A stretch of DNA of 64,000 nt. Origin: Cutibacterium sp. (GTDB lineage: Bacteria; Actinomycetota; Actinomycetes; Propionibacteriales; Propionibacteriaceae). The notes beneath the pieces are model-generated. The model made no database searches. It was not told the origin of the DNA and was given only the letters and a program-made list of their open reading frames with translations. Positions 45,788-54,108 of the stretch are shown here, in pieces (position 1 is the stretch's first letter; each line of letters opens with the position of its first letter). The position numbers and the translations under genes are program-made. The stretch lies in the NCBI RefSeq assembly GCF_030525615.1, contig NZ_JAUNEJ010000001.1, positions 688,696 through 752,695 on the forward strand. Reading direction: 5' to 3'.

Positions 45788-45806
45788 TCATTTTGATACA
45801 TGGCTC
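45788..45806. other. ssrA-distal attachment site of the element
   Basis: tcattttg-AT-acatggctc; the 13-mer TCATTTTGATACA is the inverted copy of TGTATCAAAATGA at 54090-54102. Confidence 0.7.
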
Positions 45807-45808
45807 TA

Positions 45809-45860
45809 GGTGGGTGCAAAAGTCGTGAGGGTGGGTGCAGAACCCGCGAGGGTCGGTGCA
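45809..45860. repeat. Three GGT(G/C)GGTGCA repeats at exact 21-bp period
   Basis: Starts at 45809, 45830 and 45851; the spacers also resemble each other (aaagtcgtgag / gaacccgcgag). Confidence 0.85.
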
Positions 45861-45989
45861 TGGGGACACTTCGCTTATGTGCGCTGGTTTTCCCTGATGC
45901 CTAGGTGCGCTTGCCTCTTGCTCAGACGGAAGCGACTATGGCTCCACCGAGACTAAGTGACGTGGATCCACGGCATAGATCGCTGGGTG

Positions 45990-47377
45990 TCAGGCTTTGA
46001 AGTGAATCTCGATAGCGCCGTCAGCGATGACGGTGGCGTGGTCGACGAGGGTGTGCCATAGGTATGGGGTGAACTCGATGCTGGTTGGGTCGAGGGTGGC
46101 GAGCTGTTCCTTGTAGTAGCGGTAGGCGGCTTGCCGGTTGTCGAGGTCGCTGATCTGTAGGTCGGTGGTGTCGAGTTCGGCACGCACCGCCTGGTCGACC
46201 AGCTCGTCGACCTGGTCCCGGTTGGCGAGGAGGTGGTGGACGGCGTCGAGGAAGGCGGTAGTGATGTGTTCGTCGCTGACGTGCGGAGTGCTGCACGGGG
46301 TGGTGCCTGCGTATTTGTGGTTGCACCGCCAGATGCGTTTTTTCGTATTTGGTGCCTGAATGCCAGGTTTTCGAGCCGTACCAGGCCCCGCACTGGGCGC
46401 ATCTGATTTTGCCGGAGAAGCTCCGTTGCCGGGAGGAGGAGCGTCGCCCGGTGGCGGGGGCGGCGAGTTCTGCTTGGACGAAGTCCCACACGGCTGGGGT
46501 GATGATCGGCTCGTGGTTTCTGTTGACGTAGTACTGGGGTACTTCACCTTGGTTCTTGACTTGCTTCTTGGTGAGGAAGTCGGTGATGTAGGACTTCTGA
46601 AGTAGCGCGTCGCCTTTGTATTTCTCGTTGGTGAGGATGCTGCGCACGTGGTGGGCCGACCAGTTCGGGTTCCCGGATGCGGTGAGATGGCCTTCGGCTT
46701 GGAGTTGTTTTGCGATGCCGGTCAGGGAGCCGCCGTCGAGGTAGAGGGTGCAGATGTGGCGGACGAGTTTGGCTTGTTCCTGGTTGATAACGAGGTTGCC
46801 GTCCTCGCCTCGCTCGTAGCCGAGGAACCGGCTGAACGGGACGGTGACTTTCCCGTCGGCGAAGCGTTTCCGGTGCCCCCAGGTGACGTTCTCACTGATG
46901 GAGCGTGCTTCCTCCTGCGTGAGCGAACTCATGATGGTGATGAGGAGTTCGCCTTTGGCGTCGAACGTCCAGGTATTCTCCTTTTCGAAGAACACCTCTA
47001 TTCCGGCGTCCTTCAACTGGCGCATGGTGGTCAGAGAATCGACGGTGTTGCGGGCGAATCGGGAGACACTCTTGGTGACGATCAGGTCGATCTTCCCGGC
47101 TAGCGCGTCGGTGACCATGGATTGGAATCCGGCGCGGTGTTTGGTGGTGGTGCCGGTGATGCCTTCGTCGGTGTAGATTCCGGCGAGCTGCCATCCGGCG
47201 TGGTCGGTGATGTAGCGGGTGTAAGTAGTCGACCTGCGCCTGATAGGAGGTCACTTGGTCCTCGTGATCGGTGGCGACGCGGGCGTAGCCTGCGACTTTA
47301 CGGATCGTGGTCTGTCCCAAGGGTGTGCCGGTGTGTAGGCGGCGGGTGGCCAGGATCGCGGTGATGGTGCGCGCCAT
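45990..47377 (-). pseudogene. Large serine recombinase 2 (resolvase + recombinase + Zn ribbon), frameshifted
   Basis: KVAGYARVATD, VTKSVSRFARNTVD, RFLGYE, LTNEKYKGDALLQK, CAQCG...WRC, spread over three frames; +1 shifts near 47223 and 46338-46343; coiled-coil looks shortened. Confidence 0.88.
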
Positions 47378-48817
47378 TTAGCGTTCACTCCGCTCGGCGC
47401 GGAGCCTTTCGGCTTCGGCTTTGGCGACGGCCCGGTACTTCGCGAGAGCTTCCGGAGGGGTGGATGCGCTGCGACCGTCGATGCCGAGTTTGCGGGCATT
47501 GTCCCAGCGGACTTTGGCGAGTTCGGCCCAGGCGGCTTTCTTCGCCGGGGTCCAGGAGGACTTCTTCAGGTTTGGCCGCCACGTATGACTACTGGTGGTG
47601 CCATCGGTGTAGTGGAACGTGTAGTGGTCTTTCCCGGCCACGTCGATGTGGTCGATGGGCGGTGAACACGTCGTCGTCGAACTCGTCGATACCGAGGATG
47701 GTGGCGATGAAGGTCTTGAGGGCGGTGTCGGAGATTTCGCTGGTGCTGCAACTGGTGGCACGTCCTTTCTTGCGTTCGGTGCAGATCCAGTGTTCGGTGG
47801 TGATTGAGTTCTGGGTGCGGGGCTTGCGGGCGGTGCGCACGAAGGAGCAGCCGCAGGCGGCGCACTTGATTTTCGAGGTCATCGCCACCGTGTCGATCGA
47901 CCAGTTGGCGCGTGCCCCCAAGTCACGGCGGCGAGCGATCTCGGCCTGCACTGTGGTGAACGTGCCGTGGTCGATGATCGCGGGGATCGCCCCTTCGACC
48001 AGGTACATGGGATGCTCGCCGGTGTTGCGCACCGCCCTGCCGGGTTTGCCGTCCGGGGTCGCCCATTGGCCAAGCAACAGGTCGCCGGTGTAGGAGGGAT
48101 TTTTCAGGATGTGACGCACCCACTCGCCGGGCATCTTGTTGCTGGCTAAGTGCGGAACACGGCCATCGGTGATGAGCTGTGCGGCCATCGCCTCACACGA
48201 GGTCGGCAGCATGTAGTGGGCGAAAATCCACCGCACCACCTTCGCTTCGTCTTCAACGATCTCGACGTCGGTCGCATCCGGGGAGTCTGTGTAGCCGTAG
48301 AGGTGGAAGCCGTTGGCTTTGCCTTGCTCGAAGCCTTTCCTCACCCGCCATTTCACGTTCTGGCTAATCTGCTCGGACTCGGCCTGGGCGAAGGAGGCGA
48401 GCAGGGTGAGCACCAGCTCCCCATCAGCGGAGAACGTGGAGATGTTCTCTTTTTCGAAGCGAACCTCGACGCCGAGGGTTTTTCAGTGCCCGGATTGTTT
48501 CCAGCAGGTCGACGGGTGTTGCGGGCGAACCGGGAGATCGACTTGGTCAAGATCAGGTCAATCTGACCGGAGCGGGCAGCGGCGAGCATGGCTTGGAATT
48601 GGGGCCGGTTGGTGGTGGTGCCTGAGATACCTGAGTCGGCGTAGACGCCCGCATACTCCCAGCCGGGGGTGGATTGGATCAGCTCAGAGTAGCGGGAAAT
48701 CTGTGCCGACAGCGACTTTGGGGTGCGGTCGTTTTCCATCGAGATGCGGGCATACGCCGCGACCTTCCTGGCCCGTGCACTCTGGGGTGGCGCGGTGACC
48801 CGTTCCATCCTTGCCAT
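47378..48817 (-). pseudogene. Large serine recombinase 1, frameshifted
   Basis: KVAAYARIS, TKSISRFARNT, FAQAESEQISQNVKW, ILKNPSYTGDLLL, CAACG...WIC; +1 shifts near 48515, 48477 and 47658; its stop abuts the recombinase 2 ATG. Confidence 0.88.
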
Positions 48818-48936
48818 AGATTTTCCTTGTATGACTAGGGGTTTTGTATCGTTTGCACGTCTATACATCACTCTGATCGGCCGTGAAGTCAACCAAAAGA
48901 CGAATCAGCCAGGAGAGGGATCCCTTCATAAAACCT

Positions 48937-52464: not shown

Positions 52465-52668
52465 ATGAGAATCCAATACAACAAACTCTGGAAAATCCTG
52501 ATCGACAAAAACATGAACAAAGTCCAGCTCAAAGAAGCCGCAGGCATCAGCAGCAACTCGCTAGCCAAACTCGGCAAAAACGAACCCCTCCGCATGGACG
52601 TACTCATGAAAATCGCAACTGCACTCAACTGCAAAGTCGAAGATCTATTTGAGACAATTCCCGGATGA
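52465..52668 (+). CDS. Cro/C1-type HTH protein (HTH_26-like)
   Basis: MRIQYNKLWKILIDKNMNKVQLKEAAGISSNSLAKLGKNE...LMKIATALNCKVEDL; GAAAGGAA RBS. Confidence 0.9.
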   Translation: MRIQYNKLWKILIDKNMNKVQLKEAAGISSNSLAKLGKNEPLRMDVLMKIATALNCKVEDLFETIPG

Positions 52669-53129
52669 CCACAGGTCGTGACCATCGCACTCAATGCGCA
52701 TTTACATCTGATCCGTTAGAAGTTTTCGCCTAAAGCTAGGAAAAGAACGACCTATCGGCTAGATGCTAGACGCAGACCACTTTCTATCATCTGGAGTGTT
52801 CGAGTCTGCCTGTCCTCCCCCTGCGACAACGGCATCGTGACACGCCGCGATACTTAGTCTTGTTCAGAATCGCGGTAGCCTTTCGCTTGGGTTGCGTACA
52901 TCTGCGCATATACGCCACAGCGAAAAATTCTCTGGATTAGCACTCAAAAACTACACAAACTTACCGTTGCGCAATCCCTGCAGCAGGCGTCACTCCTAGA
53001 TCAGGCACAAAACATACCGCCGATCATTAAAAGCAGCACGCTCACCACGAGGCCGATACACATCCTTCAACGCCAACCGACCAAGCCCCTCCACATACTC
53101 ATCCCTCACAGAGCTCCACAACCCACGAA

Positions 53130-53636
53130 CTACTTCAACACACGAATAGACTCGCCCACCTTATCCAAATCAGCCTTACGAGACTCCTCAAAAAAACCAC
53201 CAACTACTACAGCCGTATCATCATCAATCTGAATCATATACAAACGAGCAGGAAGCTTATATTTTTTGCTCATCCAAAAATCCATAACTACAGTTTTATA
53301 TCCATCAATTTCCATTTCAGTATGGCGTGTACCACCACCGCCAACGGTTCCGCCAGTATCAGCCCTAAATTGACCTTCGATATCATCAACAGTTTTTTGC
53401 TCAGGATCGTGATTACCGACCACATAATTTAACAGGTTCTCCGACGCATGAACGTTACTCCACCCATGCAAGTAGCCATCAGGATTATCAAAATCTTCAG
53501 GATATGCAAACTCTACCAAATCTGCCACAGTATCCGTCACCCAACCCTCAGGCACCTTAGACTCCTCTTTTCCGCCAGCACAGCCTGCAAGCGCAAGCGC
53601 ACACACAGCCAGCAGGCTCATGATTTTTAATTTCAT
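53130..53636 (-). CDS. Orphan low-GC lipoprotein (168 aa)
   Basis: MKLKIMSLLAVCALALAGC lipobox; AGAGGA RBS; acidic mature domain. Confidence 0.8.
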   Translation of the reverse strand: MKLKIMSLLAVCALALAGCAGGKEESKVPEGWVTDTVADLVEFAYPEDFDNPDGYLHGWSNVHASENLLNYVVGNHDPEQKTVDDIEGQFRADTGGTVGGGGTRHTEMEIDGYKTVVMDFWMSKKYKLPARLYMIQIDDDTAVVVGGFFEESRKADLDKVGESIRVLK

Positions 53637-53852
53637 TGCGATTCCTCTCTTGATGTCTTCAAAATCTTGCATCTGGCGGCGCCCATCCGAGCCAATCTCA
53701 CCCAAATACTGCTTGGTCTTCACTGAAGAACTTTCAATAGATTGTTTCGCCTTATGATACACAAACCAGGCATCAATCCTTGCCTTTATGCCGGAAATGA
53801 AGTAGCTCTGGCTGCACACTAGTCGTTCATGGATTAGTACTCGCAGGACTTT

Positions 53853-53920
53853 TTGACGCCCTAACCCATACCAATTGACGTAGACCCTACACATTTTGAC
53901 GATGCTCCGCACAATTTGAC
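53853..53920. repeat. Four TTGAC motifs phased at 20-22 bp near the ssrA-proximal end
   Basis: TTGAC at 53853, 53875, 53896 and 53916, each preceded by a T/A run; a further copy at 53966. Confidence 0.65.
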
Positions 53921-54073
53921 GCGCTCAGGCGCTCGAAGCAGGAGGCCACCCACCAGGCAGCCAAATTGACTCCAGTAGAGACTTTTGAACAGCAACCGTG
54001 CGTCCTCTGAGCACGTTGCCACTCCCCCAAAACCACCCCTGACAAGACAAAACGCAACCCTTCCGGGCAATAC

Positions 54074-54108
54074 AAAAGGACGCTCACTTTGTATCAAAAT
54101 GAGCCTCC
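54074..54108 (-). terminator. ssrA intrinsic terminator, coinciding with the ssrA-proximal att site
   Basis: GGAGGCTCATTTTG-ATA-CAAAGTGAGCGTCC-TTTT, 13 of 14 pairs, starting 3 nt after the CCA end. Confidence 0.8.

Follow-up and report, generated by a model that had tools for sequence, protein, structure and literature searches.

The analysis of a 64,000-nt window of Cutibacterium sp. DNA (assembly GCF_030525615.1, contig NZ_JAUNEJ010000001.1, positions 688,696 to 752,695 of the forward strand; coordinates below are those of this whole stretch) indicates that its segment 45775-54115, about 8.34 kb next to ssrA, the gene for transfer-messenger RNA (tmRNA), is the heavily deleted, dead remnant of a temperate phage. 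This phage very probably entered the chromosome by recombination between a 50-bp attP and an attB made of the ssrA 3' end, with exchange at a dinucleotide AC. A sequence-only reading of the same DNA had proposed a serine integrase with a symmetric core that targets the ssrA terminator; nothing in our data supports such an enzyme, and the map of the locus is corrected here, ssrA being intact and its present predicted terminator having been supplied by the phage. The element itself is an ordinary fossil, and its interest lies in the family of paired large serine recombinases (LSRs), aimed at the 3' ends of tRNA and tmRNA genes, to which its two recombinase pseudogenes belong. The features on which the argument rests are the following.

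45753..45774, minus strand: B' arm, the original sequence downstream of ssrA, CAGAAAAGGAAGCGTTGAAGTC (script)
45775..45776, minus strand: inferred crossover dinucleotide of attR, AC in the ssrA sense (script; identity with genomes G008 and G001 ends one base beyond)
45777..45800, minus strand: P arm (phage half-site), TGTATCAAAATGAACGTCTAAGTA; 24/24 identical in G008 and G001, homologous arm at 25 loci
45809..45860, minus strand: three 21-bp-phased GGTGGGTGCA repeats just inside the P arm (repeat search D12)
54072..54108, minus strand: hairpin GGAGGCTCATTTTG-ATA-CAAAGTGAGCGTCC followed by UUUUGU (RNA fold; terminator scan)
54090..54113, minus strand: P' arm (phage half-site), CACTAGGAGGCTCATTTTGATACA; recurs after the CCA of tRNA genes in 8 genomes
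54114..54115, minus strand: inferred crossover dinucleotide of attL, AC in the ssrA sense (centre of the 24+2+24 symmetry; same at attR)
54116..54137, minus strand: B arm of attL, the T-loop and acceptor 3' strand of ssrA, GGGTTCAATTCCCGCCATCTCC (script; same position in the tRNA-Ala of G008, G001 and G089)
54112..54482, minus strand: ssrA (tmRNA), full length (ARAGORN; Rfam RF00023, 170 bits, model positions 1-374)

The true ends of the remnant lie at 45775/45777 and 54113/54115. They form an imperfect inverted repeat (45778-45800 and 54090-54112, 23 nt, 83%, by repeat search), and joining them at AC gives TGTATCAAAATGAACGTCTAAGTA-AC-CACTAGGAGGCTCATTTTGATACA, a pseudo-palindrome of exactly 50 bp. 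This AC, which reads GT on the plus strand at 45775-45776 and 54114-54115, consists of the discriminator A and the first C of CCA, and attL and attR are both symmetric about this same dinucleotide; it is this symmetry that points to AC as the crossover dinucleotide, the sequence data alone also allowing CC. Phage LSRs carry Resolvase, Recombinase and zinc-ribbon domains, act on an attP of about 50 bp that forms an imperfect inverted repeat, and leave no long repeat shared by attL and attR. At the two ends examined here, no long duplication of the ssrA 3' end was found: in register, only ACCA is common (TGGT on the plus strand, 45773-45776 and 54112-54115). No displaced 3' fragment of a tRNA-type gene (tDNA) of at least 15 nt was found at the far end, and no target direct repeats of 15-20 bp. 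AC at both centres, in the absence of a long direct repeat, is likewise observed in G001 and G008. The sequence-only reading had also reported that the ssrA 3' end is not exactly duplicated, and had taken the ends for att sites of an ssrA-associated element with two large serine recombinases and no long direct repeat; both statements hold, ACCA alone being shared.

The gene itself, which encodes the tag AENTRTDFALAA, still has an intact 3' end (...CATCTCC-A-CCA) after integration. Directly behind it, a stem-loop (54078-54108) and a U-tract (54072-54077) read as RNA GGAGGCUCAUUUUG-AUA-CAAAGUGAGCGUCC followed by UUUUGU (-27.5 kcal/mol, z = -2.8). A near-identical hairpin follows tRNA-Ala(CGC) in G089 and is also found inside the intact attP region of G089:C1. 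Since it recurs after several different tRNA genes elsewhere, this hairpin is phage-borne, and it is now the predicted terminator of ssrA.

A rival explanation is a classical tDNA island, formed by recombination over a long core in the manner of tyrosine integrases or of CcrAB/DsiAB, whether or not the recombinase pair was responsible. The ends would then carry a decayed direct repeat of about 35 bp (CCACC-TAG-AG...CAAARTGARCGTC), an alternative that the sequence-only reading had itself raised. The target is indeed the ssrA 3' end, ssrA islands of Dehalococcoides with two serine recombinases do leave 20-bp repeats (PMC3146451), and 45822-45848 matches 54114-54140 directly over 27 nt at 70% (D9). 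This match was nevertheless set aside as a chance overlap with the GGTGGGTGCA repeats, being conserved neither in G001 nor in G008, as is also the case for its GAACCCGCG piece. The CAAARTGARCGTC similarity is explained by the pseudo-symmetry of P and P', since the arms are inverted copies, and not by duplication; common sequence in register is limited to ACCA; and the element is without a tyrosine recombinase (PF00589 search of the whole genome; nearest match at C4:789089, 46 kb away). A long-core island is thus very unlikely, although the gene end is retained from it as the target.

The case for integration by a phage at the ssrA 3' end is carried mainly by related elements. Arm and palindrome patterns were searched in 401 genomes of the family, and a six-frame recombinase search took in 301 family genomes, G000 being the genome of the window itself. 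Intact pairs of the same two recombinases were found in G089 (75% identity), G143, G063 and G046; in G008 the pair is decayed. The P arm is identical over 24/24 positions, and followed by the same AC, in G008 and G001, which represent two further species of the genus and carry it at unrelated loci: in G008 its neighbours are kdpDE and, at tRNA-Ala(TGC), a decayed prophage, while the G001 copy lies at tRNA-Ala(GGC), and similarity to both stops one base after AC. When the region 3' of the second recombinase was aligned for 25 loci, a conserved arm, TGTATCAAA-N4-GCGTTTACATAGA, was seen to extend about 24-26 nt outward from TGT and to be followed by divergence; Firmicutes loci have the same arm, TGTATCAAAGACAGCGTTTACATA-GA, but other abutting targets. 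The P' arm and hairpin recur after tRNA-Ala(CGC) in G089, which belongs to another genus, with homology running on into the element.

The joined site was also found intact in relatives. The predicted 50-mer is identical at 48/50 positions to a site in G089:C1, flanked by the recombinase-end repeats on one side and by the early-end hairpin on the other, and at 43/50 positions to a site in G043:C47; both are centred on GT/AC. Intact 50-bp sites of the same build occur in L089 and L131, and the apparent start of such a site at the contig end in L070. The sibling element of G001 has an empty counterpart: its flank matches G008:C2 at 88% identity, and the tRNA-Ala(GGC) gene there carries no insertion (GCTCCACCA|TGTCCGCC); the orthology of this empty site to the B' flank of G001 starts right after ACCA, with no palindrome there.

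By pattern search, 27 arm copies were counted in 11 genomes, while a reversed control pattern gave almost none. In alignment A6, 10 of the 11 copies lie exactly 4 nt after the CCA of ssrA, tRNA-Ala(GGC/CGC), tRNA-Thr(CGT) or tRNA-Gly(TCC), and the eleventh, in G046, follows a displaced tRNA-Gly 3' fragment. This regularity bears on another explanation, in which a transposon-like element, mobile without regard to site, has the 24-nt repeats as its terminal inverted repeats and happened to land beside ssrA. Terminal inverted repeats and short copies (3-4 kb, in G001 and G063) do exist, but the common register of the ten copies next to tRNA or tmRNA 3' ends speaks against accident; moreover, the short copies are what deletion has left of prophages, G008 still showing a lysin fragment and recombinase pseudogenes, and no target-site duplication beyond the core was seen. 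We consider such a transposition extremely unlikely.

The sequence-only reading located the exchange at an AT or TA next to TGT/ACA (45796/7 and 54093/4) and took attB to be a palindromic ssrA terminator, TCATTTTG-AT-CAAAATGA, with a symmetric core usable in either orientation. The strings that it quoted are present on the plus strand (tcattttg-at-acatggct at 45788-45805 and ctcactttgt-at-caaaatga at 54084-54102), an 18-bp palindrome can be built correctly from the two outer arms, and TTG-AT-ACA is common to the junction regions of the window, G089 and G046. However, these junctions are misplaced by about 20 nt on each side, and the supposed host arms lie inside the element: CAAAATGAACGTCTAAGTA, outside the proposed crossover, is element sequence conserved at unrelated loci (identical in G008 and G001, homologous at the 25 loci), and the right-hand AT lies in the loop of the intact hairpin, whose two strands had been read as separate 'outer' and 'inner' arms. 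The palindrome, searched as CTCATTTTG-N2-4-CAAAATGA, was found in 0/401 family genomes. The form expected at empty sites, TCATTTTG-(AT/ATAT)-CAAAATGA, is missing from the ssrA downstream regions of 10 genus relatives, and the empty tRNA-Ala(GGC) site in G008 is equally free of it, an outcome that the sequence-only reading had itself named as refuting, although it concerns a sibling locus and not this one. Since the hairpin is phage-borne and both the empty site and the 401 genomes are palindrome-free, the target is the 3' end of the gene and not its terminator. The circle junction would have had to read ...CCATGT-AT-ACAAAGTGAG, whereas the intact joined sites of relatives have their arms the other way round, and the reconstructed palindrome is the attachment site of the phage itself, read inside-out, rather than a bacterial target. 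With, in addition, an asymmetric AC indicated by symmetry as the core, a terminator-palindrome attB is contradicted and barely credible.

Part of this proposal stands, in that both orientations relative to ssrA do occur, with an inverted asymmetric core and not a symmetric dinucleotide. The asymmetry of the central dinucleotide sets orientation in LSR exchange, according to Ghosh et al. (2003), as cited in PMC12884075. In G046, it is the recombinase end that adjoins ssrA, so that the prophage lies the other way round from the element of the window, and the junction reads P-GT-rc(B) in the recombinase sense (rc, reverse complement), at the same place in ssrA; the arm has 23 nt, which leaves a 1-nt ambiguity. 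This opposite orientation fits the rule, as the core of G046 is inverted (GT).

Integration at the ssrA 3' end by this phage would most simply follow canonical LSR chemistry between attP (P-AC-P') and attB (B-AC-B'), presumably catalysed by the two recombinases. The attB would comprise the last 24 nt of ssrA (T-loop, acceptor strand and discriminator) and the 22-24 nt behind it; B would end at the base before the discriminator, and a 2-bp staggered exchange would take place at AC. P' starting with CA, the CCA end of ssrA would be regenerated, and P' bases 6-19 would pair with the next phage bases into a hairpin with a U-tract, which would serve as the terminator of ssrA. In the empty site predicted for this species, ssrA would be followed directly by ...GCCATCTCCACCAGAAAAGGAAGCGTTGAAGTC, and the predicted circle junction reads ...CTAAGTA-AC-CACTAGG. 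For insertion at tRNA-Thr or tRNA-Gly, TC would take the place of AC as the core; L070 reads ...AAACA-TC-CACTT.

The two halves of attB also resemble each other. In the window, TTCAA lies 15-19 nt from the centre within ssrA, and B' carries TTGAA at the same distance; at tRNA-Ala(TGC) of G008, the mirrored motif is the 9-nt GGGTTCGAG, 14-22 nt from the centre on both sides, and at tRNA-Ala(GGC) of G001 it is TTCG, at 16-19 nt. These mirrors suggest that a T-loop-like motif may be read on both sides of attB.

Several observations weigh against this interpretation. The identity of the arms (45777-45800 against 54090-54113, by script) is only 19/24, below the threshold of the shuffle test of the arm pair (at least 20/24), which therefore says little; the case for the att model rests on the comparative evidence. 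The mirror between B and B' is only 5 nt long in this window. In G046, the 23-nt arm and the tandem, attP-like junctions are not explained by canonical attP x attB chemistry alone. In the 3-kb remnant of G063:C8, which may be a composite, the dinucleotides of the two ends disagree and the P' arm is shorter by 2 nt. Finally, no conspecific genome lacking the element was found, so that for this species the empty ssrA site is a prediction and not an observation: sequencing runs gave only low-depth metagenomes with contigs of 150-300 nt, and exact-protein look-ups returned one same-allele contig or nothing.

The G046 junction in question, TGTATCAACACCAGCAGGCAGTTA-GT-TACGGGATTGCTGGTATTAATACA, is a 50-bp attP-like sequence which, with several arm copies, lies upstream of the prophage (L052 1262-1311; G046:C1:586870 and 599614). 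This far site had been taken for the outer boundary of the prophage, an assignment that was revised, the junction lying within a tandem array. The arrangement suggests an array of related elements downstream of ssrA, akin to the accretion known in Dehalococcoides. Also in G046, a 1.7-kb AT-rich insertion with two reverse-strand open reading frames (ORFs), bounded by 63-nt direct repeats (87% identical), separates the second recombinase gene from the P arm (L047 15654-17476).

The comparative data point to paired LSRs whose integration sites are the very 3' ends of tRNA and tmRNA genes, a niche usually credited to tyrosine integrases. The second recombinase has widespread homologues among Actinobacteria and Firmicutes. 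Homologues are also encoded by the human-gut 'NatCom' phages PV0364xx and by the Streptococcus phages phi-SsuJS7, Javan599 and Javan93 (48-56% identity), which mostly show two serine-recombinase matches per genome, at the genome end, a likeness seen in the recombinase genes. A broader proposal, to which we give slightly less than an even chance, is that these elements form a widespread temperate-phage lineage with an LSR pair, whose attB is the discriminator-CCA end of tRNA or tmRNA genes. Both half-sites would be read through a T-loop-like GGTTCRA, one real and the other mirrored downstream; little more than a change of core would switch the target between tRNA-Ala/tmRNA (AC) and tRNA-Thr/Gly (TC) or flip the orientation (AC or GT), and attP would double as CCA-restoring sequence and terminator. 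If this is true, it would represent a class of serine integrases with tDNA specificity. Serine-family integrases were stated in 2014 not to be known to target tDNAs (Islander paper, PMC4383910), and a study of Bifidobacterium prophages makes the same statement in general terms (PMC6109161). A short, cofactor-independent attP aimed at universally conserved RNA-gene ends could also serve in landing-pad tools.

Compared with known systems, the element is built like phages of the phiC31, Bxb1, A118 and TP901-1 type, with which it shares recombinase domains, an attP of about 50 bp, a central dinucleotide, the absence of a long repeat, and recombinase genes located by attP at the prophage end. It differs from the phiC31 type in having two adjacent LSR genes instead of one, a tRNA or tmRNA 3' end instead of a protein-coding gene as attB, an attP that restores CCA and supplies a terminator, and phased repeats beside the P arm. 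The DsiA/DsiB islands of Dehalococcoides likewise target ssrA specifically, encode two serine recombinases in the same orientation and accumulate in tandem downstream of the gene; they are mobilisable, non-phage elements inserted in the T-loop with a 20-bp repeat (McMurdie et al., 2011, PMC3146451). Here, by contrast, exchange would occur at the discriminator/CCA, 4 nt are shared, both enzymes are full LSRs and the element is a phage; DsiA and CcrA, the smaller partners of their pairs, are reported to have no DNA-binding domain (PMC3146451). CcrA/CcrB of the staphylococcal cassette chromosome (SCC) also form an LSR pair acting at the 3' end of an essential single-copy gene, with inverted repeats at the ends and tandem composites, but by description their target is the protein-coding rlmH (orfX), the direct repeats are about 15-18 bp and the elements are non-phage. 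Tyrosine-integrase islands and phages in tRNA and tmRNA genes (Islander class) share the target class and an attP carrying bases that restore the RNA gene; they differ by enzyme family and by a displaced tDNA fragment of 15-50 nt, not present here, which measures 26 bp in the tmRNA prophages of Bifidobacterium (PMC6109161).

The GGTGGGTGCA motif is also repeated beside the P arm in G008, G001 and L070 (L054 3120-3150; L139 1525-1600), and other repeats occupy the same place elsewhere: TTTTGCGCGC in G046, GGTGTGCGCAAAA, three times, in G089:C1, and GCACCCAAAAC in G043. Their position is thus conserved while their sequence differs between lineages, and the GGTGGGTGCA repeats are candidate binding sites for an accessory protein, which would be unusual for serine integrases.

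Between ssrA and a gene of the URO-D family, the remnant holds two LSR genes on the minus strand, an Abi_2 gene, a PolA fragment, two small helix-turn-helix (HTH) genes and several short ORFs, of which the following were annotated.

45996..47377, minus strand: second LSR, 'recA-type' (distal), pseudogene (Pfam Resolvase, Recombinase, Zn_ribbon_recom; tblastn in three frames)
47456..48817, minus strand: first LSR, 'recB-type' (proximal), pseudogene (Pfam; tblastn)
49459..49656, plus strand: small HTH (XRE-type) gene (Pfam list of the same gene on Logan contig L031, 13442-13639)
50269..51216, plus strand: Abi_2 (abortive-infection-like), intact (Pfam PF07751, E = 1e-50)
51220..52104, minus strand: phage family-A DNA polymerase, C-terminal fragment (Pfam PF00476; full-length 640-aa homologue in the G046 prophage)
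52465..52668, plus strand: small HTH_26 gene (same gene on L031, 16448-16651)

The two recombinase genes are adjacent and co-oriented. PF00239, PF07508 and PF13408 were found on pieces of both, so that the Recombinase and Zn_ribbon_recom domains are present on both partners, and their intact homologues measure 499-552 aa. With these homologues, tblastn resolved the recA-type gene (about 529 aa if intact) into pieces in three frames, 47377-47225, 47223-46339 and 46343-45996, with two frameshifts near 47224 and 46340; its central part is 90% identical to the G089 homologue, and its catalytic Ser is replaced by Ala (YARVAT, against the consensus YARVST of intact homologues). The recB-type gene (about 500 aa if intact) is likewise split among three frames, 48817-48515, 48482-47664 and 47656-47456, by two frameshifts near 48500 and 47660; it is 76-86% identical to the G089 homologue and retains YARISM (motif Y-x-R-x-S). 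As both genes are frameshifted and one is without its catalytic serine, the element is immobile on its own. Its origin is documented by a complete prophage in G046, the only genome of its genus in the comparison, which comprises a DUF2800 nuclease, SSB, PolA with a convergent Abi_2, tail, holin and lysin genes, and then both recombinases. The Abi_2 gene of the window is convergent with the polymerase fragment in the same way, so that the 8.3 kb are taken to be a deletion remnant of such a phage, and Abi_2, the sole clearly intact sizeable gene of the remnant, an ancestral phage cargo kept through decay.

Two further candidates were examined at related loci and rejected. A TTGATACA upstream of the first recombinase could have been a third arm, but in Firmicutes it is coding (I-D-T) in a conserved upstream gene, and at actinobacterial loci it falls within a stretch resembling a promoter, TTGACTTC...GATGTATAGAC. 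A truncated hsdM by the G089 recombinases could have been host flank, contradicting the model; the same fragment is present in G143, which makes it phage cargo. This HsdM-like N-terminal fragment (L044 2808-3554 in G089, L045 2700-3000 in G143, ending ...VYE(A/T)F...WIQ...AA*) is shared by two phages, in which it adjoins the cargo slot at the recombinase end, and may be a decoy or truncated methylase encoded by the phage instead of a host gene that was disrupted.

Other observations concern further elements and the neighbourhood. The contig L070 (Gleimia hominis CCUG 57540, NODE_6, 31.5 kb, coverage 3775) ends 5 nt into the P' arm of an attP-like site (…CTAAACA-TC-CACTT) and is probably an excised, replicating phage genome. 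A second P'-type arm with hairpin, CACTAGGACGCTCATTTTGATACAAAGTGGGCGTTC, lies in the genome of the window itself (G000:C4:278476-278493; L140, 1400-1700), directly after the second of two tRNA-Ala(GGC) genes, and is followed by sequence homologous to 54040-53990 of the window; no matching P arm was found for it at up to 1 mismatch, and the site looks like a second related prophage or remnant. In G003 (C1:1442500-1442824) and G007 (C1:66926-67249), a second ssrA copy of about 340 nt, 79-80% identical, lies 1 kb and 10 kb away from the genuine one; these copies belong to a different kind of ssrA-associated island, one bearing most of the gene. Finally, the URO-D-family gene (44559-45590), which adjoins the B' flank and has a low GC content (0.41-0.51), was found in none of the nine genus relatives, while a homologue of the M20 peptidase beside it is present in G001; the URO-D-family gene was probably acquired separately, at the same hot spot.

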